Source: Escherichia phage JLBYU08. Taken from it: a DNA stretch of 64,000 bases. The translations under genes were made by a program, and so were the position numbers. How positions within the stretch are numbered: the first letter of the stretch is position 1; each line of letters opens with the position of its first letter. Under the pieces are notes generated by a model. It saw only the letters and a program-made list of their open reading frames with translations, did no database searches and was not told where the DNA came from. This document shows positions 34,008 to 48,066 of the stretch, piece by piece. The stretch is taken from the sequence record OK272482.1; one strand, written 5' to 3'.

Positions 34008-35536
34008 CACACAATTAGCTGCCCGGCTAAAGTGCTGGAAGCACCTATAACACATCTTTCAACTAAATTTCCTACAACCACAATCACTTACCTCCCACAC
34101 ATGACTGTTTGCTTGTTTAGTGAGCAGTCATGCCTTGACATTCTTGCCTATCCTGATAAAATTAAGTTCTTCTCTTTTCTTTTACCGAGTAATTCGGGTT
34201 TTCTGTTCTCTTCGGTTTGAAGGGGTATGGAGATACACCTGAGTGAACAGGGTGAACAACCGAACATTTGGCTATGGCATTAGCATGGCGAAGCGGACGG
34301 GTGACGAAAGAGGGGCCGGAGGACACCAGTCACTGCCATATGATATATGGGTGATAACCTGAAGAGTCTGAATAAGTGTTTAAGTACCAGTCAGAGGAAA
34401 AGGTGAATGGTAGCCGAAGGGGGAGGGGGGGTTTCTTGTATCTTTAATTTGTATATTATGTATACACTTGTAAACCAATCTCATTTGAATTTGTTTACCA
34501 CACAAAGGGGATAGAGACAAATATTATCTATTAAACTTGAATTATTTATAGAAAATACCACAACACCACTTAAGTCTTTGATTTTACACACAAATCCTAC
34601 AGATATTCACCCTCCATATTTAACATACCTGTAACATATTCCATACCCTACCTGTCTGATCAATTCACCCAACCACACCCTCCATATTTTCCCTGTCTGT
34701 ACCACCCCTGCCCCGCCGGGAGTCCCGTCATATCTGGCTTTCCAGCAAATATCACACCCACAAATATCATTGCCTGAAGAGGGTTTCATCCCATAATACC
34801 TGCCTTACCTGAAGAGCGCTTCATATACCCCGTAAATTTTTTTAATTGACCTCCTCCCCGCCGCCGGAGGGGTCGGCTTTTCCCACACAGGCCTGAAGAG
34901 TCAGCCAGAAATATTTGAACAGGTCCAGTTATACCACGATTTTGACCTGACCGACAGGGAGGCCCGAAGGGTCTAGCTTTCAGCTAGAGTCCTTGCAGGA
35001 CCTACAGGAGCGCTGCCAGGCGGACGAAATGGGAATACTTCTCATTCTTATAACAATTCTCAAATATCAAGGCAGTGAGGCAAATTAATAGGTGAGGCCG
35101 TTCACATAGTGGCACAACATTTGCAATCTATTTTGTGTGGGGGAATGAGAATACATATCATTGTGAGAACCATTATCATTACGGGCAATTTAACATAATA
35201 CCCATTATACGCACCACTGACGATACATACAGGGATTGATAACATGGGTTACTGTTTACGCATATAACAATTATATTTCTTACTATTTGTGTGGGATATA
35301 GTTAGCAGCCGATAGATTAGATATTGACCTGCGGACTTCTGACCGTCTAGACGTCTAAACGCCCACACAACAAGGCTTATACATACATCGCTGAATGTAA
35401 ACAGGGCCGCAAAAATGCTACCATACCAGATTGTAAATTTTTCATGCAGCACTTGACAAAGAGGAGAAAAACTTGTCTGACACAATATGACATACTGGGC
35501 ACATTAAACACACTTTAGACTTAATTGACATGCCTG

Positions 35537-35660
35537 ACTGTTTACGCTGTCACTATTCACGCTATTACTATTCACTCCCTTTACTGTTCACGCTCTTACT
35601 GTTTACATGCTTAATGGTTTACATGCTTAATATACTGCATGTCTAATAGTTTACATAGCT
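35537..35660. repeat. iteron-like array, about 7 tandem copies of CT(G/A)TT(T/C)AC(R) with alternating 14/16-bp spacing
   Basis: ctgtttacgct / ctattcacgct / ctattcactcc / ctgttcacgct / ctgtttacatgcttaat / tggtttacatgcttaat / tagtttacatagc read directly. Confidence 0.6.
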
Positions 35661-36509
35661 AACTATTTATACAGATATGATAAGCCATGCCATTCGTTTG
35701 CATGTTAATAATTTATGACATAATATAAAAGCAGGGCAACTATTAGCAGATCTATAGTTGCCTTGCTTGTCATGTCATGATTAACTAAATACAAGGCAAC
35801 TATGATCTGATTAATAGTTTGCAGACAAACTATCACGGGGGTGATGGTTACTGCTTTTATATTATGTCGCGACTCCGTCGCGCCATGCCATTCGTTTGCA
35901 TAGTTGCCTTATTGTTACAGATAAAATAATTGTATTGTTAATTATTTCTTATCTTTCTCTTAGTCATCTAATGATTCCAGTTAGTATAGTAATGTACAGT
36001 AAACATTAGACGACTAAAGATTTATATGCTTATAATAACTTACAGTGACAATTTCGGACTGTTTACGAAAAATGTTGACACCTGAGCCGATTTATGTTAT
36101 GCAGTTTACACGAATAATTATTTTATGCAGGTATTGACTATTCCGTTATTCCATGGTTGGAATAAATACTTAGCAGTCTATAGAATGGTGACGCTACGTG
36201 AATTCTGGAATTTAGTGGCTATAGTTATACTCGATTTTTCACGTAGAACACGCTTTTGTTAGTGTGTAAGTGTATGACTTATAAAGATTTTTAGTTGTTG
36301 ACAAGATACTGAAGATATGCATCAGGTTAAATTTTGTGCAATAGCGGCATTACGTGCAATTTTGGGAGAGAAAACGGGCAAAAATGGCCTTGCTACCACA
36401 CAATGAAAAATTATGCAATAGTTATTTTCCATGTATATTTGTACAGTGTGTGGGATTAATGGCTAGTCAATTATTCCACTTGCCAGGTAGGGCCGTTTAT
36501 GGTAGGAGA

Positions 36510-36542
36510 AGAGCAGACAAAAAGAAAGGGGCCTAAGCCCCT
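36510..36542 (-). terminator. rho-independent terminator ending the minus-strand arm
   Basis: Hairpin AGGGGC-CTAA-GCCCCT; on minus strand followed by TTTCTTTTTGT. Confidence 0.65.
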
Positions 36543-36561
36543 TGATAATTCAGTTAAAAAA

Positions 36562-36981
36562 TTATAATGATTCGTATATTTCAAAAATCCGATTTGCCAG
36601 GTCGTTACGGTAGCGGAATTTTTCCTCACGTTTGATCATAAGATCTTTATAGCCGTACTCTTTAAGCACTTCATTAACTTTATGGCGGCATACTTTCATA
36701 TTATCCTGCGCGTCACCAATAAATCTGTTGCTATGGTGCATGGCTTTAATTTCTTCTTCCAGGACCAGGGCAACTATGCGGACCGGATCAAGCTGATAGG
36801 CGGTAACATCCATGCGGCATTGTAGACGGCTTTTAACGTCCGCCACCGGATATACTGCAACCTCTTCCCCGTCAACATTGACAATAATTAGTTTACCATC
36901 GATTTCGAATCCTTTCGCCGCCGGACCGTGACAAAAAGCGTTATCAAAGCTATATGCCGGATTATCAGATTTAATGTTCAT
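36562..36981 (-). CDS. hypothetical protein
   Basis: 139-aa ORF with RBS GAGAGG; promoter at 37033-37061. Confidence 0.5.
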   Translation of the reverse strand: MNIKSDNPAYSFDNAFCHGPAAKGFEIDGKLIIVNVDGEEVAVYPVADVKSRLQCRMDVTAYQLDPVRIVALVLEEEIKAMHHSNRFIGDAQDNMKVCRHKVNEVLKEYGYKDLMIKREEKFRYRNDLANRIFEIYESL

Positions 36982-37032
36982 GGTGTTTTTTTACCTCTCA
37001 GTTAATTTTCTTACAACTTCCCTTCAAAAAAG

Positions 37033-37061
37033 AATATAGCAAAACTGCCGATCCCTGTCAA
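37033..37061 (-). promoter_or_regulatory. sigma70-like promoter (TTGACA-N17-TATATT)
   Basis: Read on minus strand: TTGACAgggatcggcagttttgcTATATT. Confidence 0.5.
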
Positions 37062-37127
37062 CCAAGGATAGCATAATTTTTATGTGATCAAGGGGCTTTA
37101 TTGCCCCTGACCATGTAACTTGTTGTA

Positions 37128-37391
37128 TTATTTGTTGCTCATCCAGTTTTCCCAAGCTGCCTGATAATCTGCCTCACTACGGCGGATCTCTTCTTGTTCT
37201 TCAAGTCGGATCTCTTCTTCCAGGTACCCCAAGATGTCAGCCTTTTTGGTCTGGCGTAGCATCCAGTCATCTTTTTTGCGGGTAAAGATCTTATAAGCTT
37301 TCTCGCAAACCTCTTTTTTGCTACCTTTCTGGACTTCCAGAACACGATAAGCCATATATTGAACTAGTTTGAGCTGGTCAAGACGTTTCAT
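37128..37391 (-). CDS. hypothetical protein
   Basis: 87-aa ORF. Confidence 0.45.
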   Translation of the reverse strand: MKRLDQLKLVQYMAYRVLEVQKGSKKEVCEKAYKIFTRKKDDWMLRQTKKADILGYLEEEIRLEEQEEIRRSEADYQAAWENWMSNK

Positions 37392-37453
37392 GATGTTTTT
37401 CCTCTTTATGTGGTTTTTGTTTAGTGGGCCTTTTGGCCCGTGTCATTATCTTA

Positions 37454-37726
37454 TTACTTACGGCGGCAGAATTCAAGCGTTTTTAATTGATAATCTTCCT
37501 CAGCCTGGAGTACAACCGCCTCGATCATTTCGTTGGCATTGTTGAAGCCATACCCTTTAGCGAACTCATCCGCACCACCTTCGTGATCATGTTCTGCGTT
37601 CATCGCTTCCACGAAATGGAATTCAAGATTATTGAGATAAGGGCTTGATGTTCCGTCCTCTTTTTCGATGAGATCCCAAATAGCATTAAAACGTGATTCG
37701 ACTTCTTGATTAATCCAGCTTGACAT
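37454..37726 (-). CDS. hypothetical acidic protein
   Basis: 90-aa ORF. Confidence 0.45.
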   Translation of the reverse strand: MSSWINQEVESRFNAIWDLIEKEDGTSSPYLNNLEFHFVEAMNAEHDHEGGADEFAKGYGFNNANEMIEAVVLQAEEDYQLKTLEFCRRK

Positions 37727-37945
37727 AATGTTTTCCTCTCTTCTGGTTGTTGTGTGGGCACTTTTGCCCCTTCAAGATAAATGTTACCCCACCACCTGGC
37801 AGATGTCAACGGTTTTTATAGTTCTTATATGACAGGCAGGCCCGGTGATTGTCTCCCCCTGTTCCCAAGTGCCGCCCGTTTAATAAGAATAGCAAAAGGG
37901 GCCGAACAAGTCAACCCCCAAAATCAGTACCAAAACACTTTTTAT

Positions 37946-38257
37946 TTATACGGTCCGATCATTGGCCTTTGTCCAGGACCTGGCGATCCGTTTCCCGGTC
38001 ACCTGGAACGGAGACTGCATTGTGTGTAAGGAGTCCAGCGTAAGGGAGGACCGTTTACGGCGTATCTTCAGGATCGCTAACGTATTGTCCATCTCACGGC
38101 CAGGCCCTGGGCGGTATGGTGTGCCTCCAGCGTTAAGGTTGATGATCTCATGTATTGAGATCCGGCGTTGTTTTGCTTCCGCATCTTTGAAGATAGCCAG
38201 CGGAGGAGCTATGCGTTGCCGATACCAATCTAAAACGGTTGGCGTAATAGCGATCAT
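37946..38257 (-). CDS. hypothetical protein
   Basis: 103-aa ORF. Confidence 0.4.
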   Translation of the reverse strand: MIAITPTVLDWYRQRIAPPLAIFKDAEAKQRRISIHEIINLNAGGTPYRPGPGREMDNTLAILKIRRKRSSLTLDSLHTMQSPFQVTGKRIARSWTKANDRTV

Positions 38258-38445
38258 ATTTTACCCCCTATGTAGTCCGGTCGGTTTTTCTCTGTCATGC
38301 GCTTAAGCAATTCTTGCATATGGCTGATAGCTTGTAGCGTGTCTTCTTCCAGGCTTGAATCTACATAATCAGGATCGTCTATGACCTTTCTATGATTATG
38401 ATAACGCAGTACCGCCAATACCTTTCTAACTTGTTCAGTATTCAT
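38254..38445 (-). CDS. hypothetical protein
   Basis: 63-aa ORF. Confidence 0.4.
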   Translation of the reverse strand: MNTEQVRKVLAVLRYHNHRKVIDDPDYVDSSLEEDTLQAISHMQELLKRMTEKNRPDYIGGKI

Positions 38446-38461
38446 TTTACATCTCCCTTAC

Positions 38462-38752
38462 TTATTGTTGGCGGTTTACGTAAGCTTTACCGTTTACGGT
38501 GATGGGCAGATCTTCCAGGTCTGGATCTTCCTTAAGGTCGCGAGCAAGCTCACCGCACCGGATACCCTCAAATCCGTAGTACTCTGTTGTACCGTCATTA
38601 AAAGTTTTAGTGGCAAGGCATAAGCGATAAGTAACCCCGATTCGATTGACGGCATGAATATCCGTTAGATTAACCTCTTTTGCCAGCTCATTAGCCATTG
38701 CAGGCGCACTAAGTCCAACAACCAGGGCAACCACTGCGATCATCTTTTTCAT
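38462..38752 (-). CDS. secreted/periplasmic protein
   Basis: Signal peptide MKKMIAVVALVVGLSAPAMA. Confidence 0.5.
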   Translation of the reverse strand: MKKMIAVVALVVGLSAPAMANELAKEVNLTDIHAVNRIGVTYRLCLATKTFNDGTTEYYGFEGIRCGELARDLKEDPDLEDLPITVNGKAYVNRQQ

Positions 38753-38843
38753 TGTGTCTATCCTCTTTCTGCTACGTTTAAGGCGGCGGTAACCGCCTGT
38801 TTATGCTTTGTTGGTTAATTTTCGGGTATCGGTATAAATTAAA

Positions 38844-39059
38844 CTATGCTGTACGCTCAACTATAACAACGGTTTGGGGGATCTCCCCTTCCACCACTAG
38901 TAAGGCCTTTTTCTGCGTGATAGATATCTTTACCCGTTGCAGCGTGGCGGTGAAGTCTTTCATTTCGTCACGCGGTGTTTTAGTGCAGTACCAGATCTCA
39001 GGCTTGCCGATCTGTAAGTTGCGTAAAAATTCTGTTTTGCCTGTTTTGTTAGTGATCAT
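38844..39059 (-). CDS. hypothetical protein
   Basis: 71-aa ORF. Confidence 0.4.
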   Translation of the reverse strand: MITNKTGKTEFLRNLQIGKPEIWYCTKTPRDEMKDFTATLQRVKISITQKKALLVVEGEIPQTVVIVERTA

Positions 39060-39068
39060 TTGCCAACC

Positions 39069-39173
39069 TCACCCGATACCGTTGGAAGACAAGATCATAT
39101 TAGACATGGTTGCAATCAGGCCAATACCCAGGGCAATAACCAAGATCACTGCATCGATTAATTTCTGTTTCAT
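39069..39173 (-). CDS. 34-aa hydrophobic micro-protein (putative)
   Basis: MKQKLIDAVILVIALGIGLIATMSNMILSSNGIG; below ORF-track cutoff. Confidence 0.3.
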   Translation of the reverse strand: MKQKLIDAVILVIALGIGLIATMSNMILSSNGIG

Positions 39174-39250
39174 AGTGTTTATTCTCTTCTGTTAGTAACC
39201 TTATTCATGGGGCCGCTACCACAGCCCCAGGGTAAGGCGGCTATGTGCTT

Positions 39251-39496
39251 TTAGTGTTTCATTCCAACCATCGCGGCACGGATCGCCGTAGTGCTGTACT
39301 TGAAGCCGTCCGGGGTCTTATCTTGTCCGGTTAGCTCCAGAAAAAGCATCATATCCCGCGCCGCATCATTACGATCAGCATTAGCGTTAATAAATCCTTG
39401 GGCCAACCGGTACAATGACTCATCGTTATTAATCCAAAGGCTTACATTCCAATGAGTTTTGTTTTTGTAACCGTTATAACCTTTATTGCTTTTCAT
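39251..39496 (-). CDS. hypothetical protein
   Basis: 81-aa ORF. Confidence 0.45.
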   Translation of the reverse strand: MKSNKGYNGYKNKTHWNVSLWINNDESLYRLAQGFINANADRNDAARDMMLFLELTGQDKTPDGFKYSTTAIRAAMVGMKH

Positions 39497-39587
39497 GGTG
39501 TTTACCTCTTCTTTGTTCCGGGTGGCGGATCATTCCACCACCTTATGTATTATGCTTTGTTAGATGGTTGTTTGTTGTCAAACTATT

Positions 39588-39767
39588 TTAACGATAATCA
39601 TCGTACGCTTTATTAACCTGGCGAATATAACATTCAAAAGCTAGATCAATAGATTCATATTCACGGATATACTCACCATAGGAAACCACATACATTTCTA
39701 TAACTTCCTCATATGCGAGGAGAATAGAATCTAAGCCTACGATCTCGGTCTTTGCAATAATAGCCAT
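39588..39767 (-). CDS. hypothetical protein (59 aa)
   Basis: ORF just below track cutoff, preceded by promoter-like TTGACA and hairpin. Confidence 0.35.
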   Translation of the reverse strand: MAIIAKTEIVGLDSILLAYEEVIEMYVVSYGEYIREYESIDLAFECYIRQVNKAYDDYR

Positions 39768-39843
39768 GATTTTTTATCCTCTTTGTGGTTGGTGGGGCTT
39801 GTTGCCCCCTTTGATTTATATACTACAGTTTTATATGGTCATG

Positions 39844-40077
39844 TCAACTATTTTCAAAAAATTTTTCTGCTGTAATATTTTTCCCGGTAGGGTTCGCTAC
39901 TTTCAAAATTTTATCATGCACTGGACGCCCAAAAGAATAAGCGCCGTACACAGTGCACCAATAATCGCCGTCAGGCTGTACTATTACAGCCGCATAGGGT
40001 ACGCCTTTTTCGTTTTTGCTGACAAAATAGATCACGTTGCCATTAATAGCCTCGGCGCGTTTAATTTGTTCCATCAT
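39844..40077 (-). CDS. hypothetical protein
   Basis: 77-aa ORF. Confidence 0.45.
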   Translation of the reverse strand: MMEQIKRAEAINGNVIYFVSKNEKGVPYAAVIVQPDGDYWCTVYGAYSFGRPVHDKILKVANPTGKNITAEKFFENS

Positions 40078-40132
40078 GATGATTTGCCTCTCTTTATTTT
40101 CATAATTGGGGGCCTTTTCGGCCCCGCCAGGT

Positions 40133-40417
40133 TTATTTATTGATAGCGTGCAGCGGGAAAGGTACGCCAGGTTGATAGATAACTTTTACAACCTCATCAG
40201 AGCAAAAGAAATTACAAAATTCACCCTGATAAGCCTCATCCTCTTTTAATTCTTCATCAACATACTGGAAAAAGTAGTCAATGCTTGGATAATCCTGACC
40301 GGGATTATATTCAACCATGGTTAATAACAATTCTTGATCATTCCGTATGATATGCATACCAGCTTTTAAGTATTTGGCTTCCATTTCTACTACATCGCCA
40401 ACGGTAACAATAGCCAT
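40133..40417 (-). CDS. hypothetical acidic protein
   Basis: 94-aa ORF. Confidence 0.45.
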   Translation of the reverse strand: MAIVTVGDVVEMEAKYLKAGMHIIRNDQELLLTMVEYNPGQDYPSIDYFFQYVDEELKEDEAYQGEFCNFFCSDEVVKVIYQPGVPFPLHAINK

Positions 40418-40547
40418 GGTTTTAACTCCTATCTATCCGGTTAATGATTGGAGGCCTCACCGCCCCCGACACCCTTTATTATCCATATTGTAGGACTTGA
40501 TGCAAGTACTTCTTTAAAAATTTTTTAAGCGCCTTGGGGGCCGCTGT

Positions 40548-40587
40548 AACGCCAAAATAATAAAGGCTATGCAACCGCATAGCCTTT
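40548..40587 (-). terminator. rho-independent terminator
   Basis: Hairpin AAAGGCTATGC-AACC-GCATAGCCTTT; minus strand followed by ATTATTTTGG. Confidence 0.55.
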
Positions 40588-40622
40588 ATGTGATTATATC
40601 GCTGCAGGCCCTGCCAGGGACC

Positions 40623-40973
40623 TTATTTTGCATTCTTTCCTATATTGCCGCTACGGTACCAGCGTTTACGGTGAAAATGGTAATAATCACCATCGGCATT
40701 GAACATCAGATGATTTTCAATAACCAGCTTACGAAGGTGGGCCGGATCTTGTTCCATTCTTGCCAGATTCTGGCGGCTGTTACGTAAGCGGATAAATTCT
40801 ATATTCAGGCCGTTGATTGCAGCATGGATGTCAAAGTAACCACCTTTGAGACGTTCACGCATGGCGTTAAGCTCAACACAATATACAGATTTCTCACAAA
40901 TCAAGGTATTAGCCAGGGCGCGGACCTGGGCAAGGGGGTTAAGCTCATTAAGGTAATATAGTTTTACTTTCAT
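40623..40973 (-). CDS. hypothetical protein
   Basis: 116-aa ORF. Confidence 0.45.
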   Translation of the reverse strand: MKVKLYYLNELNPLAQVRALANTLICEKSVYCVELNAMRERLKGGYFDIHAAINGLNIEFIRLRNSRQNLARMEQDPAHLRKLVIENHLMFNADGDYYHFHRKRWYRSGNIGKNAK

Positions 40974-40990
40974 AAAATCACCTGCTGAAA

Positions 40991-41296
40991 TTAGTTTGAG
41001 AAAACATCGTTCACAATAGCGATCACAATGCCGCCCACCTTGTCACGGTCAACAATGCACAAATCACCATAGATCATGTGGTAGTCTGGATGATCTTTGA
41101 CGGAATAGTCGATAAGTGTTTTCTTGTCATCCAGCTTACTAACTTCCATTCTCATAACGATATGAGAATCATCAAAGGCATTATTCCGAAAAGTCATAAC
41201 CTGACCGCCAGGGCACCCGGTGATTTCCACCTCCACGCCGTCTACGATCTGACCATCAAAGAAATAAAGATTATTAGCCTGGATAAACATGATCAT
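40991..41296 (-). CDS. hypothetical protein
   Basis: RBS AAAAAGGAG before ATG 41296. Confidence 0.45.
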   Translation of the reverse strand: MIMFIQANNLYFFDGQIVDGVEVEITGCPGGQVMTFRNNAFDDSHIVMRMEVSKLDDKKTLIDYSVKDHPDYHMIYGDLCIVDRDKVGGIVIAIVNDVFSN

Positions 41297-41334
41297 TACT
41301 CCTTTTTGCACTGATTATTTTAACAAGGTTTAAA

Positions 41335-41378
41335 TTTACTTTATTGATGGCCCTGGAGTCAAGGCCATCTAAAAATAA
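41335..41378. repeat. 44-bp intergenic palindromic element, copy 1 of 3
   Basis: TTTACTTTATTGATGGCCCTGGAGTCAAGGCCATCTAAAAATAA. Confidence 0.7.
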
Positions 41379-41381
41379 ATT

Positions 41382-41582
41382 TTACAGGCCTACAATCTCT
41401 TTAATTCGTTTTACTGCTGCCTCAGCGCCTTGAGGGTAAAAATTATGGTAACCAATCACGCGAGTGATACTAATCGCCGTTTGATGATCTTCATAATCAC
41501 CTTTAAAGATTTCTTGACCGTCAATCAGCACGGCAATTTTTTCTTCTTTTTTGAAGTTAATAACGCGGATATTGTTGCTCAT
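41382..41582 (-). CDS. hypothetical protein
   Basis: 66-aa ORF. Confidence 0.4.
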   Translation of the reverse strand: MSNNIRVINFKKEEKIAVLIDGQEIFKGDYEDHQTAISITRVIGYHNFYPQGAEAAVKRIKEIVGL

Positions 41583-42063
41583 TTTGTTTCTCCTTTTGGA
41601 ACTTTGTCTATGCGGTGGGGAGTGTCTCCCCGTTGATTGTTATTATCCATATTCTGGATCGGATTGCAACACTCAGGGAGAAAAAAATTTGAAAAGTTAG
41701 GCCCCCATGATCGGGGGGCCGTTCTTAGTTACTTACAGCGATAAAGTACATCCCTACGCCTAGCAATATTTCAAGGGCGATAATCTCAAGCCATACCATA
41801 ACGCGGCGCACCTTATCGGTGCATGGCTTATCCTTGGTTGTCATCGTCTCCCCCTTTCCTTCTGGTAGTAGTGACGCGATCTACAATGGCCCCCAGGAGT
41901 CCTATCCCGACACACACCACAAGAAAAATTATCTCCGCTGTTGTTCGATCCATTGTTATAAAATTCCTCAAGATCAGGCCTGAAAATAAAGCGTTCGTTA
42001 TTGAATCCATCCCGCCAGGCGGCTGGCTTCAAATCTTCACTAAAGGGATTAATTAACGTGGCA

Positions 42064-42435
42064 TTATTTAAACGGCTGGTCCACATATTTTCTATTCCTC
42101 TCAAATAGGCGATCCGCCTCAGTTAAACAAATCTCATGGGCGTGATCTCTGGTTTTAGCTTCATCGAAAACCTGTTGTGCAAGGCTGCAACGTAGGGAGA
42201 CTGGAAGATCACTATAATAGGCGTTGACAAACGTTTGAGCGTCGTACAGGTCTGAAAATACTTTACCCTTTCTATTATTCCCCTTGTCAACAATTGCAAG
42301 GATAACCAATACAATAGTTGCAACCACCCCCAGGAAAATAGATATAATAAACCATAAAAAGGCGGATCTTCCCATCTTGCCAGCGATCCAGGCGTTAAAC
42401 AAGGCAACCAATACAGCCAAAATAATAAATTCCAT
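42064..42435 (-). CDS. membrane protein
   Basis: Two TM segments; RBS AAGAGG before ATG 42435. Confidence 0.45.
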   Translation of the reverse strand: MEFIILAVLVALFNAWIAGKMGRSAFLWFIISIFLGVVATIVLVILAIVDKGNNRKGKVFSDLYDAQTFVNAYYSDLPVSLRCSLAQQVFDEAKTRDHAHEICLTEADRLFERNRKYVDQPFK

Positions 42436-42499
42436 TCTATGTACCTCTTTTACAGTTCTGATTAACAATAAGGCGGCAAATATGCCGCCTGCTACCTGA

Positions 42500-42880
42500 T
42501 TAAAAATTATCGCCGTAAATCTTTCCGCTTTCTACCCATACCACCACGCGAGGCATACTATCCCACACGTCTTGTTTTAGATTGAGCGCGTGCAATTCTT
42601 CGGTGGTGCTCATACCGGGCACGGGCTGATTGTATACTGCAAAACGACCGCCTGCATAATCATAGGCCAGGGTTAAATCACACTGGATCATCTTTTTGAT
42701 CATGGTATTAAGCATGGCGTTAGCCGCATATTGATCACGTTTTAAAGGCAACTCTTTGATTAGTTTGCGATAGTTTTCGATATGGTCGCACACTGTTTCA
42801 CGAGGAAGATCTTTCATATCTTCACGGAATGTAACCAGGTTAAACATAACGGTGTCAATAGCCTTGGTAGTGTTTTTCAT
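42500..42880 (-). CDS. hypothetical protein
   Basis: 126-aa ORF. Confidence 0.45.
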   Translation of the reverse strand: MKNTTKAIDTVMFNLVTFREDMKDLPRETVCDHIENYRKLIKELPLKRDQYAANAMLNTMIKKMIQCDLTLAYDYAGGRFAVYNQPVPGMSTTEELHALNLKQDVWDSMPRVVVWVESGKIYGDNF

Positions 42881-42970
42881 GATGTTATCCTCTTTGTTTT
42901 GTGTTGGGGCAAACGTCTTGCCCCCTTGAGTTTTAATATAGCAGGTTTTTAGGTTATTGCAACACTTTAT

Positions 42971-43594
42971 TTATGAAAAAGTCATCTCACCATATTCATC
43001 GACATCAAACCGCCAATCATTGGCCTCGATAAGGCCGATCAGGTTTTCTGCGGTGAACTGTTCTAGATAGGCCTCCTCCAGGTCTACGTAAACCTTGCGG
43101 GATAGCTCCCGTACCGTCTCGGTGATCAGTTCTTCCAGGTCTTCCACTTTGTTTTCTTGTTTGGCGGTCAGATCTAGCCAAGTGGTATCAATGTACCCGC
43201 TTACAGTGTTTTCATGGCTGTAATGGCTGTACTTGTCGCGTTCAACACTGGCTGATAACTCGCCATCGTGCATTGTGCCGAACAAGTGACGAATTGATCG
43301 GAACTTGGTCAGGGCCTTTACTTTACGCAAAAATTTTTCTAAATCCACGTTTTCAGCACTGATTGACGCGCCGTCACCCTGGCACCAAAAGCCTGACCAA
43401 TGTACTTCGGTATCTTCAAGGCCATACTCTGGAAAAACATATTCTTTATAGTATTCAATTACACTTTCTGCAAAAAAGTTATCCCCGCTGTGTTCTTCTC
43501 TTTCGCGGACCATTTCAACGGCTTTTTCTTTTTGTTCGTCGGTCAGCACGTCGAAAGATAAATTGTAACCTGCGGTAATGTTAACGGTGGTCAT
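42971..43594 (-). CDS. hypothetical acidic protein
   Basis: 207-aa ORF; promoter and hairpin upstream. Confidence 0.5.
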   Translation of the reverse strand: MTTVNITAGYNLSFDVLTDEQKEKAVEMVREREEHSGDNFFAESVIEYYKEYVFPEYGLEDTEVHWSGFWCQGDGASISAENVDLEKFLRKVKALTKFRSIRHLFGTMHDGELSASVERDKYSHYSHENTVSGYIDTTWLDLTAKQENKVEDLEELITETVRELSRKVYVDLEEAYLEQFTAENLIGLIEANDWRFDVDEYGEMTFS

Positions 43595-43651
43595 GATATT
43601 TTCTCCTATTTTCTTTGTTAGTGGCGGGAAGTTTTCCCGCCTGTGTGTTTA

Positions 43652-43679
43652 AGTATACTTATTGAGGCTTACTTGTCAA
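43652..43679 (-). promoter_or_regulatory. sigma70-like promoter (TTGACA-N16-TATACT)
   Basis: Minus-strand hexamers followed by hairpin GGCGGGAAAACTTCCCGCC in the leader. Confidence 0.45.
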
Positions 43680-43929
43680 CACTATTTTTTAAATTATTGT
43701 GGCGCAAAATGTTTAAAATCTCCTCAACGTCATCAACACGGCGGCAATTTTTAAACGCTACCAATTGCCCCATGATTTTAATCACTGGGCGGCCTTGCCA
43801 GTGCCCTTGAATAAAGCGCGCCTTAACCTTATCGGTGGAACTATCCCGCCACCAAACGGCTTTATTATTGCAGTAGTAAAAATTATTTAGGACAACATCG
43901 ACTTTATCAAAATTTTTCAATTTACGCAT
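43669..43929 (-). CDS. hypothetical protein
   Basis: 86-aa ORF. Confidence 0.4.
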   Translation of the reverse strand: MRKLKNFDKVDVVLNNFYYCNNKAVWWRDSSTDKVKARFIQGHWQGRPVIKIMGQLVAFKNCRRVDDVEEILNILRHNNLKNSVDK

Positions 43930-44112
43930 GGCGTTTACCCCCCTTACTTCTCGCTTTGATGTGATTAGTATAGCTAACCTGTTGACGATGTCAATGATAT
44001 TTTTAACGCCATGAAACGGCCCTGGGCGATGTTTTCAGGTTAAAGGGGGCGATTGCATAGGTGGGGGCCTTTTTGGCGCTTACAGGGCCAACCAGGGGCG
44101 CTATTCGTAGGA

Positions 44113-44144
44113 TAGAAATAAAAAGCCCCGCACAATGGCGGGGC
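44113..44144 (-). terminator. rho-independent terminator
   Basis: Hairpin GCCCCG-CACAATGG-CGGGGC; minus strand followed by TTTTTATTT. Confidence 0.7.
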
Positions 44145-44152
44145 GTTGGTTG

Positions 44153-44374
44153 TTATTTGTCTTTATGGCGGTATCGTTCTGCCTGTCGTTCACGTTCCAA
44201 AAGTAGGCCGGGCAATTTACGATCATAATGATTACGCCAGATCTTCCCAAACCTTTTTGGCTTATTCAGTTTATTGTTACGCTGGCGGCGTTCTGGCAGC
44301 TCTTCGGAATCATGAGGGCGCTTTACAATTTTCTCGAAATTAATTTTCATATATTCCCCCCTTGCTAACTTCAA
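44153..44374 (-). CDS. small basic protein
   Basis: 73 aa, Arg/Lys-rich. Confidence 0.4.
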   Translation of the reverse strand: MKLARGEYMKINFEKIVKRPHDSEELPERRQRNNKLNKPKRFGKIWRNHYDRKLPGLLLERERQAERYRHKDK

Positions 44375-44693
44375 TATTGGCCTGAATAGCCCGGATACGG
44401 CGCTTTATAACTTCCTGATCTGTGTGGTCGTATCCCCAAAAGTCTACAATTTTTGCGCCCCCCGCCTCCAGGCGGTATAGTGTTTCCTGCATTTTGTAAG
44501 CCGGGATCGGTCGCGGTGTTACTTGGTCACCTTCTTTATTTTTATACTTTATAATATAATCTTCGTTATCGTTGAATGCCCAAAATGGATATTCTGCAAG
44601 GGCGGTACTTCCTCTTTCCTTTTTATCCTGGATCTTATTTACAATTAAAGCCGTAGCAATAGCGCCAATAATAAAACTTGCCCCGCTGATCAT
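44340..44693 (-). CDS. membrane-anchored protein
   Basis: N-terminal TM ISGASFIIGAIATALIV. Confidence 0.45.
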   Translation of the reverse strand: MISGASFIIGAIATALIVNKIQDKKERGSTALAEYPFWAFNDNEDYIIKYKNKEGDQVTPRPIPAYKMQETLYRLEAGGAKIVDFWGYDHTDQEVIKRRIRAIQANIEVSKGGIYEN

Positions 44694-44767
44694 GTACTTT
44701 CTCCTTTCATGGTGTTAATAAATTATCTTTATAGATGGCCCTGCAACCAGGACCACCGAAAAAATAA

Positions 44768-45013
44768 CTATTTCACAATGCCTACAAAACAGATCCCGCC
44801 TTCACCTATATAAGCAATATCGGTCACTTTATAACTTGTCAAGATCTGCTTATTTAGTTCATTAATAAAATCGGTCATTGCGTTGGTGTAGTTGTCTTCC
44901 GTGTCTAAGGCATAATCCCAGGTGTACACCTTTTTACGTCCGAAGCCTTTTACCATGATACGGGCGCTTTTGGTGTTGGTAGGGGCATAATATTTGGTGA
45001 TTAGTGCTGCCAT
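44768..45013 (-). CDS. hypothetical protein
   Basis: 81-aa ORF. Confidence 0.45.
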   Translation of the reverse strand: MAALITKYYAPTNTKSARIMVKGFGRKKVYTWDYALDTEDNYTNAMTDFINELNKQILTSYKVTDIAYIGEGGICFVGIVK

Positions 45014-45046
45014 GGTTTTAACTCCTATGCATTAGTTCAGTGTTAA

Positions 45047-45090
45047 CAGTATAAAGTTTACTTTATTGATGGCCCTGGTGTCAAGGCCAT
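45047..45090. repeat. 44-bp intergenic palindromic element, copy 2 of 3
   Basis: TTTACTTTATTGATGGCCCTGGTGTCAAGGCCATCTAAAAATAA. Confidence 0.7.
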
Positions 45091-45102
45091 CTAAAAATAA
45101 GC

Positions 45103-45444
45103 TTACTCGTTTTCTTCCAGCTCCGCAAGCTCTTCTTTTGCTTCTTCTAACTCTGTCTGTAATTCCTGGTATTCTTCATCGTCCTCAATATCCAGGCTGT
45201 CGATGTAGTCGCTAAATCCGCAGCGGTAAGCGATAGGATCTAGCTCCTTGAGGATACGCGACGGAAGAAAAGAAATGTTTCCGATCATAATTTCGCCGTA
45301 GATCTCGTCTAACCATTCATCATAGTTTTCGTCGTACTTGTCCTCGTCGATTTCAAAGTTATCGATCTTATTCTCAAGGTCTGCGATCTGTTTTTTCAGT
45401 TCAGCGATCTGCATAGCTTTTTCTGAGGCGGTCATAGTAGTCAT
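45103..45444 (-). CDS. highly acidic coiled-coil protein
   Basis: 113 aa, strongly acidic (DIEDDEEYQELQTELEEAKEELAELEENE). Confidence 0.5.
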   Translation of the reverse strand: MTTMTASEKAMQIAELKKQIADLENKIDNFEIDEDKYDENYDEWLDEIYGEIMIGNISFLPSRILKELDPIAYRCGFSDYIDSLDIEDDEEYQELQTELEEAKEELAELEENE

Positions 45445-45495
45445 GGTGTTTTTCTCCTTTTGTGTGTTCTGGGAAGTTTTCCCGTTTATGTGCTT

Positions 45496-45523
45496 ATTAT
45501 ATCGATTTAAGTTAGCTTGTCAA
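45496..45523 (-). promoter_or_regulatory. sigma70-like promoter (TTGACA-N16-TATAAT)
   Basis: Minus-strand consensus hexamers; hairpin GGGAAGTTTTCCC in leader. Confidence 0.5.
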
Positions 45524-45643
45524 TTAAAAGTTTAAGAAAAATTTTGCGACACCGTTGGCGCTACCCATCAACATTTGCGCCAGGATGTACCCAATGATGC
45601 AAACGATGATGGTTACCTTTGTGTGCTGGCGTGTAGTGCTCAT
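45524..45643 (-). CDS. 39-aa hydrophobic micro-protein (putative)
   Basis: MSTTRQHTKVTIIVCIIGYILAQMLMGSANGVAKFFLNF. Confidence 0.3.
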   Translation of the reverse strand: MSTTRQHTKVTIIVCIIGYILAQMLMGSANGVAKFFLNF

Positions 45644-45677
45644 CTTTAAGCCTCCTTTTCCGCTCAACTGTGGTTAG

Positions 45678-45721
45678 TTTACTTTATTGATGGCCCTGGT
45701 GTCAAGGCCATCTAAAAATAA
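45678..45721. repeat. 44-bp intergenic palindromic element, copy 3 of 3
   Basis: Identical to copy 2. Confidence 0.7.
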
Positions 45722-45723
45722 AC

Positions 45724-46119
45724 TCAATAAGTTTTTAGTACTTTCCCGTCCAATCTGTCAAGCTGGATCTCGATAGCTGCAGAAAACCTATTGTAAACCA
45801 CATCGCCCAGGGAGTCCAGCCAATCTATGACGTTATATACCTGCTCTTTATTCTTGCAAGTCCGGATCCGTTTCATTACGTAAGACGGATCAATATTAGC
45901 GCTCTCGTTGTTGTGGTCCTGCGCCTGGCCTGCTGCGCTAGTTATAGATTTTACAACCACCTGAAAGGGCTTTAAGGTGCCTTTTGCGTTCATCTCACGC
46001 GCTTTTGCGGCGCGGTTGTTATATGTTACACAACGGCGGCAAATGTTGACCAAATGCATATCAATAATTTTTTCATCGTTTGCCAGTTCGTTCATGATGC
46101 GGCGTACGTTCTTATTCAT
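45724..46119 (-). CDS. hypothetical protein
   Basis: 131-aa ORF. Confidence 0.45.
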   Translation of the reverse strand: MNKNVRRIMNELANDEKIIDMHLVNICRRCVTYNNRAAKAREMNAKGTLKPFQVVVKSITSAAGQAQDHNNESANIDPSYVMKRIRTCKNKEQVYNVIDWLDSLGDVVYNRFSAAIEIQLDRLDGKVLKTY

Positions 46120-46201
46120 GATCTTTTTCCTTTGTGCTGGCGGGAAACATTCCAGCCTTTTGTGTCTAGTTTACTTAAATTTTGCAGCGTGTCAATGATT
46201 T

Positions 46202-46600
46202 TTATTCGTGGGCGCATGTTACAATGTGTTTTTTATAGCCCAGGTGGTCAGCAAGTGCCGACAAAAACTCTTCTTCGTAGATCCAGCCGTCGGCAGTGAT
46301 CCCCATAGCATTTAATGCGCTCTCAAGTGCTGCGTTAGCTTTATCGTAACCGTGACCGCTCGCCTTGCCGCCAGTATAACCGTACTTATTGTTCTTGTTG
46401 TCGTGAATCCAAAACACGCAGTAGTGAGTGTTCCCGCTGGCGGCGGCATAATACCGGATCTCAGCTACTTCGTGCAAATTATTGTCATCGTCCAGGCCCA
46501 CCAGATTATAAGCCTTGTAAAATCCACGATCACGGCGGCAGTTCTTGACATCAGAAAAAGAAAAGTCTGCATTATCAAAATTAAAGGTAGTGGTTTTCAT
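46202..46600 (-). CDS. hypothetical protein
   Basis: 132-aa ORF. Confidence 0.45.
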   Translation of the reverse strand: MKTTTFNFDNADFSFSDVKNCRRDRGFYKAYNLVGLDDDNNLHEVAEIRYYAAASGNTHYCVFWIHDNKNNKYGYTGGKASGHGYDKANAALESALNAMGITADGWIYEEEFLSALADHLGYKKHIVTCAHE

Positions 46601-46664
46601 GATTTTATCCTCTTAGTGTCTTTTGTGCTTTTAGTGTATTTGGTGTCGGACTGTATGTCAATAC

Positions 46665-46862
46665 TTATTTTTTATTAAACCAGTGGTTGATCTGACCTTT
46701 TGTCAGGGCGCAACGATTAAGCTGTTGCAGGGTATAGCTATGACCGCGACGAAATTTATAAAGGCCTTGCCCGTTGTTGATGGTTACATCCACCCGGCAA
46801 ATCACTTGATTGGTGACCACCTGGCGAGTGTTGCGACGTACTTTGATCCCGTATGCGTTCAT
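46665..46862 (-). CDS. small basic protein (possible DNA-binding)
   Basis: ATG 46862 with RBS AAAGAGGA; first gene after the 47-48 kb gap. Confidence 0.4.
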   Translation of the reverse strand: MNAYGIKVRRNTRQVVTNQVICRVDVTINNGQGLYKFRRGHSYTLQQLNRCALTKGQINHWFNKK

Positions 46863-46912
46863 AAATTTATCCTCTTTACTGGTTAGTGCGGTGTTGTTCA
46901 CCTTGTAGGGTA

Positions 46913-46940
46913 ATAATACCATGATTAACCTTGTTGTCAA
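46913..46940 (-). promoter_or_regulatory. sigma70-like promoter (TTGACA-N16-TATTAT)
   Basis: Minus-strand consensus hexamers. Confidence 0.5.
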
Positions 46941-47257
46941 CGACTATTTTAAATTATTTTTATGATAGAATCCACCTGCCGTCCCCGCCAGGTTAACCAC
47001 CATTTTTCGTACTCTTCTTTATGTTCCAACGCTCCCGCCATAGCCTTTTCAACCAGGGCGATAGCCTCAGAGTCATTAATAGCTACATTTTCCAGGGGGG
47101 ATCATATCATTTTTGTACCTCCTCTTCAATTGTTACCTATCCTGTAGCATAGGCCCACCAGGTTTACAAGCCTTCATTCTCCCCTACCTGGTCAGTTAGG
47201 TCCTGCCAGGCTGGCCCCGCCAGGTGGCACAATATACCTATCGAAAGGACGGCAGGC

Positions 47258-47475
47258 ACCGGTGACGGGGGAGACAACCACCGGGGATGGGCGCTGCATA
47301 AAATGAGAACGGTTATCATTATCATTTAAAAATTTATGCAAAAAAAAAAATCCTTGCTTTCTTTGTCCTGTGTGATACTATAATAACAAGCCGGGGCAAC
47401 AGGGGCCGGGAGACAATCACCGGGCCTGCCCGTTATTCTGCAAACGAGAATGATTATCATTCAAAATTCTAAATG
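47258..47475. repeat. two about 75-bp direct repeats sharing core GGGAGACAAYCACCGGG and GAGAAYGRTTATCATT
   Basis: Copies at about 47258-47335 and 47399-47475; inverted core copy at 37838-37872. Confidence 0.55.
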
Positions 47476-47578
47476 AGAACTCCTCGCATTTAATAAATTT
47501 AATTAGCACGCTAATTACCCTCCGTAACAATTTACTATAAAATAGTATCCACTAAAATATTCCCATATAGAAATTTTA

Positions 47579-47761
47579 AAAATCCATTTCTGAAAACGAA
47601 AAATCGATTTCGTCCCCAAAAATTTCAGGTTGAGAGCCGGAACGATTTCCAGAAAATCCGATTCAGAAAACGAAAAACAGATCGAGTACTGAGAAATTTA
47701 TCGAGAAAAATTTTCAGAAAATCCAAGCCCTGAAATGAAAAGTAGATCGAGTACCTGGAAA
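47579..47761. repeat. degenerate tandem repeats (CAGAAAAYCC ... AGATCGAGTAC units)
   Basis: TTCAGAAAA(C/T) four times and AGATCGAGTAC twice at about 65-bp spacing. Confidence 0.5.
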
Positions 47762-48066
47762 GCTGCACCGCAACTTCAAGATAGCGGTTAGATTGTTACC
47801 ATAGAAGGTCAAGGGTAAGTGGAGGAAGTTCTAGTAGAGAGAGGTTAGCATGTGTGGGAAATCTATAATGGTGGCCTGGAATATGGTGCAAACGATAGGA
47901 TGAGTTATTCAGCTTGTCGCGCCTACTCTGAAAAATCCATTTTAGTTTTCGATCCATTTTCTGATTTTCTAAGAATTTTAAAATATCCAGCCCGGTGAAA
48001 TATCAAAAGGAGGAAATCCATTTTAGAAATCCCCCTTATACTTGATATGCCAGAAATTTTCAAGTA

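Follow-up and report, generated by a model that had tools for sequence, protein, structure and literature searches.

Promoter and hairpin cassettes resembling promoter-early stem-loops in a small-gene island of an rV5-like coliphage

We analyzed a stretch of 64,000 nucleotides (nt) from Escherichia phage JLBYU08 (OK272482.1), referred to here as the window, with a focus on a run of small genes on its minus strand (36562-46940, the island) and on the promoters and hairpins that lie between them. An earlier reading of the sequence alone (the sequence-only reading) had counted about 30 genes here. We confirm 29, between 36562 and 46862, that encode proteins of 34-207 amino acids and are named g1 to g29 by rising coordinate; their starts were set by tblastn of the annotated coding sequences of phage Murica (85-100% identity) together with the list of open reading frames (ORFs). 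All on the minus strand, they are g1 (36562-36981), g2 (37128-37391), g3 (37454-37726), g4 (37946-38257), g5 (38254-38445), g6 (38462-38752), g7 (38844-39059), g8 (39069-39173), g9 (39251-39496), g10 (39588-39767), g11 (39844-40077), g12 (40133-40417), g13 (40623-40973), g14 (40991-41290), g15 (41382-41582), g16 (41725-41844), g17 (41841-42086), g18 (42064-42435), g19 (42500-42880), g20 (42971-43594), g21 (43669-43929), g22 (44153-44350), g23 (44340-44693), g24 (44768-45013), g25 (45103-45444), g26 (45524-45643), g27 (45724-46119), g28 (46202-46600), and g29 (46665-46862). Intergenic DNA makes up 21.5% of the island. An excess of substitutions at third codon positions among six relatives supports the coding status of 26 of the 29 genes; the signal is weak in g8, g16, and g17. 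A Shine-Dalgarno motif precedes 28 of the 29 genes, much as had been claimed, and the string AAAGAGGAtAAaAtC-ATG is common to many of them (repeat family D5). In g17, substitutions by codon position are 13/9/12, and in an alternative frame at 41828-42010, whose predicted peptide has one transmembrane helix, they are 7/9/11; neither is biased to the third position. Probably g17 is not a conserved protein gene, or it is decaying.

The products had been described as small and often acidic, secreted, or membrane-anchored, and this description holds. Six have an isoelectric point (pI) below 4.6 (g3, g10, g12, g14, g20, and g25; 4.40 for g3 and 4.05 for g25), and several of the rest are very basic. 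The N-terminus of g6 looks like a signal peptide and ends in AMA, and five products contain a strongly hydrophobic segment (g8, g16, g18, g23, and g26). The statement that no product has a recognisable domain is nearly right: two of the 29 pass Pfam thresholds, g9 as DUF7249 and g22 as Phage_1_1 (the T7 gp1.1 domain), and neither match is informative on function. All 29 fall into PHROGs of unknown function. Searches of the island products in PADLOC and NCBIfam gave no match, sequence searches of the PDB came back empty, and AlphaFold models of g20 (pLDDT 86.6) and g9 (pLDDT 88.5) had no structural match among PDB structures. We found no literature on DUF7249; relatives of g9 form more than 350 clusters, in rV5-like, phi92-like, jumbo, and other phages.

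The window phage is a Vequintavirus, an rV5-like coliphage with 94-95% nucleotide identity to phages isim, LL12, and Murica. A nucleotide search with 36500-47000 matched 302 phage records, 65 of which cover at least 80% of the query at 92-95% identity; isim, LL12, Murica, and rV5 variants head the list, all of them Escherichia phages of the genus Vequintavirus. Every annotated relative, Murica, isim, and LL12 included, has a one-strand run of 26-30 'hypothetical protein' genes at the position of the island. Such an island is nothing unusual in a large lytic phage: about 300 sequenced phages carry the region, and promoters were predicted in it in 2013. It forms the distal end of a leftward arm bearing rIIB, helicase, primase, and DNA polymerase genes, and it ends at a non-coding stretch of about 2.5 kilobases (kb) where two convergent arms meet. 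Farther upstream on this strand, LL12 has rIIB and genes for a helicase, a cytosine methyltransferase, a primase/helicase, and DNA polymerase A, after which come some 22 small genes, and about 1 kb of non-coding DNA lies between these small genes and the island. The rV5 genome paper places the region at the end of transcription unit '10-1-238-164', beside a 'non-coding' box (PMC3606486).

The sequence-only reading had assigned a promoter of its own to nearly every gene, and its four examples lie exactly where it put them (37033-37061, 43652-43679, 45496-45523, and 46913-46940). Compared to 300 dinucleotide-preserving shuffles, the promoters are strongly enriched: the island minus strand contains 11 exact TTGACA-N16-18-TAnnnT sites (nine with N16/17, two with N18) against a mean of 0.21 and a maximum of 2, and 12 sites that match at 10 or more of 12 positions against 1.9. 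All 11 exact promoters fall in intergenic DNA. Their density, about 1 per kb, exceeds that found elsewhere in the window by a factor of 2.5-4 (0.26 on the plus strand at 1-34 kb, 0.41 on the minus strand at 47-64 kb). Among seven relatives, 2.7% of positions vary in the promoter hexamers, compared to 7.2% in the spacers and 8.3% in the flanks, and at the g29 promoter the relatives keep the hexamers while nearly all of the spacer differs; these comparisons show that the promoters are real features under selection. About five further genes have near-consensus promoters (TTGCAA, TTGCAT, or TTGACT with a 5/6 -10 box). For the remainder the claim goes too far: seven genes are translationally coupled, with a gap of less than 25 nt to the upstream gene (g4, g5, g7, g13, g16, g17, and g22), another four show a hairpin alone, without a promoter (g2, g6, g8, and g11), and the site at g9 is mis-spaced. 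The proposed monocistronic, strong-promoter layout thus stands in large part, with conserved sigma-70 hexamers, and fails for the quarter of the genes that are operonic. In the window as a whole, TTGACA occurs 47 and 40 times on the two strands against about 16 expected on each, and sigma-70-like promoters are found throughout; the authors of the rV5 genome also report host-type promoters spread over the genome (PMC3606486).

The order of promoter, hairpin, and ribosome site, which had been claimed almost throughout, applies to eight or nine genes. In these cassettes, which we call class A, the parts follow one another as an upstream stop codon in an A-rich stretch (often AAAATAG), the promoter, a GC hairpin of 5-8 base pairs, a CA-rich tail such as ACTAACAAAG, a Shine-Dalgarno motif, and the ATG; members are g3, g10, g12, g15, g19, g20, and g25, with g27 and g9 less clean. 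A stop codon (TAA or TAG) in an A-rich stretch lies 2-6 nt before the -35 box at g9, g10, g20, g21, g27, g28, and g29. The g20 cassette (43623-43679) illustrates the design: TTGACA-N16-TATACT (43652-43679) is followed after 10 nt by the hairpin GGCGGGAAAACTTCCCGCC (43623-43641), correctly cited by the sequence-only reading as its example, and then by ACTAACAAAG, the ribosome site, and the ATG at 43594. The spacing recurs in g12 (40450-40505; TTGCAT-N16-GATAAT at 40478-40505, 10 nt, hairpin GGGGGCGGTGAGGCCTCC at 40450-40467), g15 (41617-41669; TTGCAA-N16-GATAAT at 41642-41669, 10 nt, GGGGAGACACTCCCC at 41617-41631), g19 (42906-42962; TTGCAA-N16-TATATT with a TG extension at 42935-42962, 10 nt, GGGGCAAGACGTTTGCCCC at 42906-42924), and g10 (39794-39847; TTGACA-N16-TAGTAT at 39820-39847, 11 nt, GGGGCAACAAGCCCC at 39794-39808). 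The proximal promoter of g3 (TTGACA-N17-TAACAT, 37781-37809) has its hairpin GGGCAAAAGTGCCC (37756-37769) beginning 11 nt past the -10 box, and g25 (45471-45523) combines a perfect TTGACA-N16-TATAAT (45496-45523) with a weak hairpin, GGGAAAACTTCCC (45471-45483), 12 nt on; repeat family D10 pairs the g25 leader with that of g20. In g27 (46139-46195), TTGACA-N16-TAAACT (46168-46195) precedes the imperfect hairpin GGCTGGAATGTTTCCCGCCAGC (46139-46157). Upstream of g9 (39521-39581), a hairpin, GGTGGTGGAATGATCCGCCACC (39521-39542), is clear and the promoter is doubtful, because its TTGACA (39576-39581) stands 21 nt from the best -10 candidate, CATAAT.

In the seven clean cassettes, the hairpin begins 10, 10, 10, 10, 11, 11, and 12 nt past the -10 box. 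If transcription starts at the usual place, this spacing would put the hairpin 2-4 nt from the 5' end of the mRNA; the base 7-8 nt past the -10 box is a purine in most class A cassettes. The hairpins end 24-34 nt ahead of the ATG, and their tails are mostly CA-rich, not T-rich. Their stems vary in sequence among cassettes (GGGGC/GCCCC and GGCGG/CCGCC types) with pairing retained, including some G-T pairs that work on the sense strand only. Composites of a promoter with a hairpin 6-14 nt past the -10 box number six, compared to 0.18 in shuffles, and on the minus strand of the 64-kb window they occur in the island only. All nine predicted leader folds have the same form, 3-5 free nt, one hairpin, and 25-35 unpaired nt that hold the ribosome site and the AUG; four are markedly stable, with z-scores of -3.1 to -4.5 (g9 -4.5, g20 -3.9, g19 -3.15, g15 -3.1).

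At five or six other genes the hairpin overlaps the -35 box instead, and three promoters have no hairpin at all: those of g21 (43967-43994, TTGACA-N16-TATACT), g28 (46633-46661, TTGACA-N17-TACACT), and g29 (46913-46940, TTGACA-N16-TATTAT with a TG extension). In the overlapping type, class B, the -35 box sits in the hairpin loop (g14, g24, g26, and, in degenerate form, g23; with a different sequence, g1 and the distal g3 promoter). Four of its members are copies of D1, a 49-nt direct repeat. Copy 1, upstream of g14 (41333-41381), carries the hairpin GATGGCCTTGACTCCAGGGCCATC with the -35 box of TTGACT-N18-TAAATT in its loop; copy 3, upstream of g24 (45055-45103), does the same with TTGACA-N18-TAAACT; copy 4, upstream of g26 (45676-45724), is 98% identical to copy 3; and the degenerate copy upstream of g23 (44721-44769) retains the hairpin and has lost the -35 box. 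Among relatives, the D1 stem is constant save for one wobble-preserving change, and nearly all variation falls in the loop; in copy 3, only the loop varies. The g1 promoter (37033-37061, TTGACA-N17-TATATT with a TG extension) has its -35 box in the loop of a hairpin at 37046-37073, and the distal g3 promoter (37886-37919, TTGACT-N17-TATTCT with a TG extension) lies within the hairpin GGGGGTTGACTTGTTCGGCCCCT (37897-37919); with TTTG behind it, this hairpin doubles as a terminator-like element after g4. We considered D1 as a wider mobile element and rejected this, as the hairpin pattern is confined to rV5-like contigs in IMG/VR. The pattern GCGGGAA-N3-5-TTCCCGC was likewise set aside as uninformative; it is a generic GC hairpin found in more than 120 unrelated viral contigs, mostly as a single copy.

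Two further kinds of hairpin occur on the same strand. Hairpin-only elements with no promoter stand before g2 (GGGCCAAAAGGCCC, 37426-37439), g6 (38781-38798), g8 (39208-39229), and g11 (40109-40125), ending 28-34 nt ahead of the ATG. Hairpins with T-rich tails close the island (AAGGGGCTTAGGCCCCTT TCTTTTTG, 36526-36543) and lie within it at 40560-40589, 41700-41720, 42471-42490, and 44125-44144; only the last has a perfect T-run. They correspond to the predicted rV5 terminators t164, t177, t181, and t184, except that 44125-44144 is not in the rV5 table. Only four to six hairpins in the island, counting 37897-37919, resemble intrinsic terminators, and these would split it into a handful of blocks.

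We then compared the island with six relatives at 93-95% identity to the window. Every indel inside it is a whole-gene event, with seven cassette indels in all. The gene g1 is absent from APCEc02, g4 from three relatives, g9 from two, and g13 from three, and this natural loss shows these four genes to be dispensable. In APCEc02, the g8-g9 stretch is swapped for unrelated sequence; Mangalyan has g9 with an extra cassette beside it. Extra genes in relatives lie between g2 and g3 (72 amino acids), g5 and g6 (a 44-amino-acid membrane peptide), and g8 and g9 (64 amino acids). Several junctions fall in the shared motifs: that of g1 is within two GGGGC..GCCCC hairpins, that of g9 is in the common leader and ribosome-site motif, with a 32-nt overlap, such that the g9 leader hairpin then precedes g8, and the g2/g3 insertion has a 28-nt leader repeat on its flanks. 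The g4 deletion has its left breakpoint at 37897 in three relatives.

The Mangalyan insertion is a complete class A cassette that matches the gp243 cassette of phi92 at 92% identity over 299 nt, leader included. Phage phi92 belongs to a different subfamily and its genome otherwise barely aligns with that of Mangalyan; judged by this match, one cassette has moved recently between the subfamilies. Beyond the gp243-type cassette, the window island and phi92 share only three island genes at the nucleotide level, in a different order. The equivalent island of phi92, which abuts the right direct terminal repeat, has the module in a form more regular than that of the window: about 14 of 24 genes are preceded by TTGACA-N17-TAnnnT, about 10 nt (..ATCACATAG), a hairpin such as GGCGGGAAATGGTTTCCCGCC or GGGCGGCAATAGTGCCGC, a ribosome site, and the ATG. 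The 381-kb jumbo coliphage WPEC5 has the same module design with TTGCAA-N17-TATAAT. In WPEC5 (record L012, 2355-4636), a homologue of g20 (203 amino acids, about 60% identity) adjoins one of g9 (DUF7249), and another copy of DUF7249 is found 1.8 kb away, which suggests that the g9 and g20 families travel together. In phi92 (record L011, 3324-3462), a 139-nt 'intergenic' space upstream of gp245 contains an unannotated ORF for a membrane peptide of about 34 amino acids (MLEKIFTVVIVGLALSVGLVATMANMILSSHGIG), a homologue of g8.

These arrangements recall the promoter-early stem-loops (PeSLs) of the T4-type phages RB49, phi1, PST, and nt-1 (Arbiol et al, 2010, PMC2839356; Comeau et al, 2014, PMC4122927). 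By its published definition, a PeSL begins with a stop codon set in AT-rich sequence and continues with a sigma-70 promoter, a G/C stem-loop that can take any of five registers, and a ribosome site with its ATG; PeSLs are enriched in variable regions of orphan genes, with crossovers inside the motif (PMC2839356). Five PeSL features are present in the island: the sigma-70 promoter, the stop codon in an AT-rich stretch, the GC stem-loop, the Shine-Dalgarno motif with its ATG, and the variable orphan region. The stem-loop register varies here too: past the -10 box in eight or nine cassettes, over the -35 box in five or six, and upstream at g1. Because the phage that carries them is a Vequintavirus, we file the cassettes as PeSL-like analogues and not as members of the RB49 family. 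The reading we favor, and consider probable, is that the island consists of PeSL-like early-gene cassettes with a 5' hairpin whose genes are shuffled at common motifs; as part of the same explanation, and with the same confidence in the whole, we take the island to be an accessory small-gene 'hyperplastic region' at the distal end of the rV5-like non-structural leftward arm.

In the mechanism that we propose, a compact cassette stands before about 16 of the 29 genes (stop codon, sigma-70 promoter, GC hairpin, CA-rich spacer, Shine-Dalgarno motif, ATG), and these genes would be transcribed by host RNA polymerase without a phage factor; as that polymerase needs none, expression probably begins right after infection. 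The class A hairpin, roughly 2-4 nt from the 5' end of the mRNA, would protect the transcript from 5'-end-dependent decay by RNase E and RppH and leave the ribosome site unpaired, and it may also provide a protective 3' end for read-through RNA of the upstream gene. In the second class, the hairpin has the -35 box in its loop. Since the cassettes have motifs of 20-50 nt in common (stems of the GGGGC/GCCCC type, the CA-rich leader that includes the ribosome site, and D1 with its 49 nt), they would act as short-homology patches where whole genes are gained, lost, and swapped, within the genus and, by comparison of genomes, between unrelated coliphage lineages.

Could the hairpins instead be mainly transcription terminators or attenuators, which insulate cassettes from read-through and halt early transcription, and not stabilisers? 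PeSL stem-loops do cut read-through in reporter assays (PMC2839356), four to six island hairpins have T-rich tails and four of them match terminators predicted in rV5, a scan for terminator-like sites finds 27 compared to 11.9 expected, and the D1 hairpins, placed where the preceding gene ends, are not part of the RNA made from their own promoter. The class A hairpins fit this role badly. Eight or nine of them are downstream of their own promoter, where an efficient terminator would abort the transcript of its own gene, and their CA-rich tails have no U-run (ACTAACAAAG, AACACAAAAC, ACCAACCACA), so that they are poor candidates for efficient terminators; nor would a constant distance of 10-12 nt from the -10 box be expected of a terminator. 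We therefore see a mainly terminating role as possible and on balance doubtful, while noting that terminator and stabiliser roles are compatible. For the class A hairpins, with their fixed distance from the -10 box and predicted unpaired ribosome site, a stabiliser role most likely fits. It is improbable that the inverted repeats are DNA operators at which a dimeric phage repressor shuts all early promoters at the switch to middle or late expression. The palindromes do lie at about +3 to +22, a classical operator position, the stem type GCGGGAA..TTCCCGC recurs in the window, phi92, and WPEC5, and rV5 has no known mechanism for changing promoter specificity (PMC3606486). However, the stems are diverse (GGGGC, GGGGAG, GGCGGG, GGGCA, GGTGGTGG) and still paired, the signature of a structure and not of a sequence-specific site; their G-T pairs become A-C mismatches on the opposite strand; the loops range from 3 to 6 nt; and GCGGGAA..TTCCCGC is the generic pattern that turns up in single copies in more than 120 unrelated viral contigs.

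A third alternative would make the genes late, or their products parts of the virion or its assembly, with the sigma-70-like sites as non-functional look-alikes. Sigma-70-like sites do occur over the whole rV5 genome, structural regions included, and the early timing is itself a prediction. The rV5 homologues of the island, genes 164-195, are missing from the virion proteome, which comprises gp30-64 and gp133 only, and the rV5 late-promoter motif TGGTAAAATA is not enriched in the island. Together with the neighboring replication genes, with whose arm the island is contiguous, these two results indirectly support a non-structural role. The promoter hexamers are selectively conserved, and promoter density is 2.5-4 times that of the remaining window. 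We give the late or structural alternative very little credence. In Certrevirus, sigma-70-like promoters are also concentrated in a small-ORF region described as 'likely early' (PMC7344957); our literature search found no time-resolved transcriptome of a Vequintavirinae phage.

Several observations weigh against the favored reading of PeSL-like early cassettes. Thirteen genes have no convincing promoter. For five of the nine leaders, the predicted fold has no significant gain in stability over shuffles (z-scores of +0.3 to -1.4). Hairpin changes among seven relatives comprise three compensatory ones, 13 one-sided ones that keep pairing, and 20 that break a pair, and the g10 hairpin is broken in five of the seven; divergence is too low and the signal too mixed for covariation to prove the hairpin structures. 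At the g4 and g13 junctions, only microhomology or replaced sequence is seen in place of homology between modules, and the clean whole-gene indels could in part reflect selection against broken neighbors and not targeted recombination. Both 'early' and '5'-terminal' are inferences from sequence. Finally, the searches in Pfam, PHROGs, PADLOC, NCBIfam, and the PDB and the AlphaFold models of g20 and g9 assigned none of the 29 products a host-directed or counter-defence activity, whether known or predicted.

The non-coding DNA on either side of the island has features of its own. The AT-rich gap of about 2.5 kb at 34050-36560 contains tandem repeats (35537-35656) and perfect 18-nt inverted repeats (35717-35734 and 35851-35868). 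It may hold the genome terminus, because the equivalent position in phi92 is the physical right end with a 343-base-pair terminal repeat; this phi92 repeat has no nucleotide match in the window. On the other side, about 1.1 kb of non-coding DNA (46950-48060) separates the island from the next gene cluster and contains a set of three degenerate repeats, each about 57 nt long (47566-47761), besides many iteron-like AATGGATTTT / GGATTTTCTG motifs; it could be an origin or a regulatory array. Just upstream of the island, at 47213-47229, relatives vary by one repeat unit of 48-50 nt. A homologue of isim_29 (58 amino acids; 46949-47110, minus strand) is interrupted at its third codon by an in-frame TGA (ATG ATA TGA), beside a C6 run, and is either a pseudogene in the window phage or uses an alternative start. 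A conserved inverted repeat of 23-29 nt (GGGAGACAATCACCGGGCCTGCC) links the island to this upstream region: its downstream arm lies in the g4-g3 intergenic space between two promoters (37829-37857, without assigned strand), and its partners are at 47408-47436 (93% complementary) and 47267-47285. Both arms are kept in seven of seven Vequintavirus relatives checked, and the element was not found at the phi92 or WPEC5 loci. If both arms are transcribed, their RNAs would be complementary, and a further possibility is that 37829-37857 and 47408-47436 form an antisense RNA pair that regulates part of the island. A scan of 33.5-49 kb for Rfam families at E up to 0.1 gave zero RNA families, and a tRNA search of the window found none.

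The observation behind the sequence-only reading is real but overstated, and it concerns a region already annotated, with predicted promoters; that reading was unaware of this, of the operonic quarter, and of the resemblance to PeSL-like recombination modules. Its proposal of a host-takeover or anti-defence locus is supported in part: the context fits non-structural, probably early expression, and a role in early host interaction or counter-defence is a reasonable but unproven reading, as no product with such an activity was found. Most likely, to go by context, the products are dispensable host-interaction, exclusion, or counter-defence factors. Three things are added here: the constant spacing between promoter and 5' hairpin, the repeat whose loop contains the -35 box, and evidence for PeSL-like shuffling modules across several coliphage lineages. 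The work yields a list of 29 genes, likely dispensable and probably early, as candidates for screens of toxicity, superinfection exclusion, and counter-defence, in a genus that features in phage-therapy and biocontrol studies. The predicted leader design, in which the hairpin stands some 3 nt from the 5' end and the rest is unstructured, is also a potential compact natural expression part. More tentatively, the module of promoter, 5' hairpin, CA-rich leader, and ribosome site may be an 'expression-cassette standard' of unrelated E. coli myoviruses, one that spans Vequintavirus, the phi92-like Justusliebigvirus, jumbo phages of about 350-380 kb, and T4-type phages. If so, a small gene borne on the module would be expressed at once by host polymerase, and genes could move between phage families by short-homology recombination in co-infection, a pan-phage market of early accessory genes.

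Among known systems, the closest annotation is that of rV5, for which Table S4 of Kropinski et al (2013; PMC3606486) lists P164, P168, P174, P185, P186, P192, P194, P195, and P195A in this region, nine of the 33 promoters predicted for the 138-kb genome, along with terminators t164, t177, t181, and t184. These sites are orthologues of island elements: P164 is the g1 promoter, P168 the proximal g3 promoter, and P174, P185, P192, P194, and P195 those of g10, g20, g25, g27, and g28, and P195A corresponds to that of g29. In that work, however, the sites are listed singly, with no promoter-hairpin spacing, no repeat with the -35 box in a loop, no cassette-wise indels, and no similarity to PeSLs. 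The island genes also resemble lambdoid morons, in which a single gene enters a phage genome together with a promoter and a terminator of its own. Morons differ in being scattered and without a common flanking motif, whereas the island genes are clustered and their flanks form a repeated family.

The host-takeover module of SPO1, the pre-early genes of T5, and the class I genes of T7 comprise some 20-30 small genes, mostly of unknown function, near a genome end, and each or almost each has a strong host-type promoter. The island shares with them a cluster of small genes, host-type promoters, the position of the equivalent phi92 island at the right terminal repeat, and the gp1.1 domain of g22. 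It differs in having no homology beyond the gp1.1-like domain, and host shut-off, terminal-repeat, or stepwise-entry features are not in evidence here. At the level of single leaders, Emory, Bouvet and Belasco reportedly showed in 1992 that a 5'-terminal stem-loop in the ompA 5' untranslated region stabilises mRNA in E. coli. The class A leaders have the same layout, a stable hairpin a few unpaired nt from the 5' end and then an accessible ribosome site; in contrast to ompA, their 5' ends are predicted from promoter geometry.

The nearest likeness is to the PeSLs themselves. No homology between the island cassettes and RB49 was detected, with no direct alignment against RB49 sequences made, and the literature searched, of which our coverage is incomplete, gave no description of PeSLs outside T4-type phages. 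Both systems have the same order of parts, with a stem-loop register that varies (downstream of the -10 box, or over the -35 box); and both are concentrated in variable regions of small orphan genes. Indels of related PeSL phages end in the motifs, where the crossover falls within the stem-loop or in the stretch from the -10 box to the ATG; among the six relatives compared here, the g1, g9, and g2/g3 junctions fit this pattern and those of g4 and g13 do not. They differ in that the island phage belongs to the Vequintavirinae and is not T4-type, and in that the hairpin at a fixed 10-12 nt past the -10 box, the commonest register here, is a minor class in phi1. The idea of modular shuffling at PeSLs, described so far only for T4-type phages, may thus extend to at least three more coliphage lineages.

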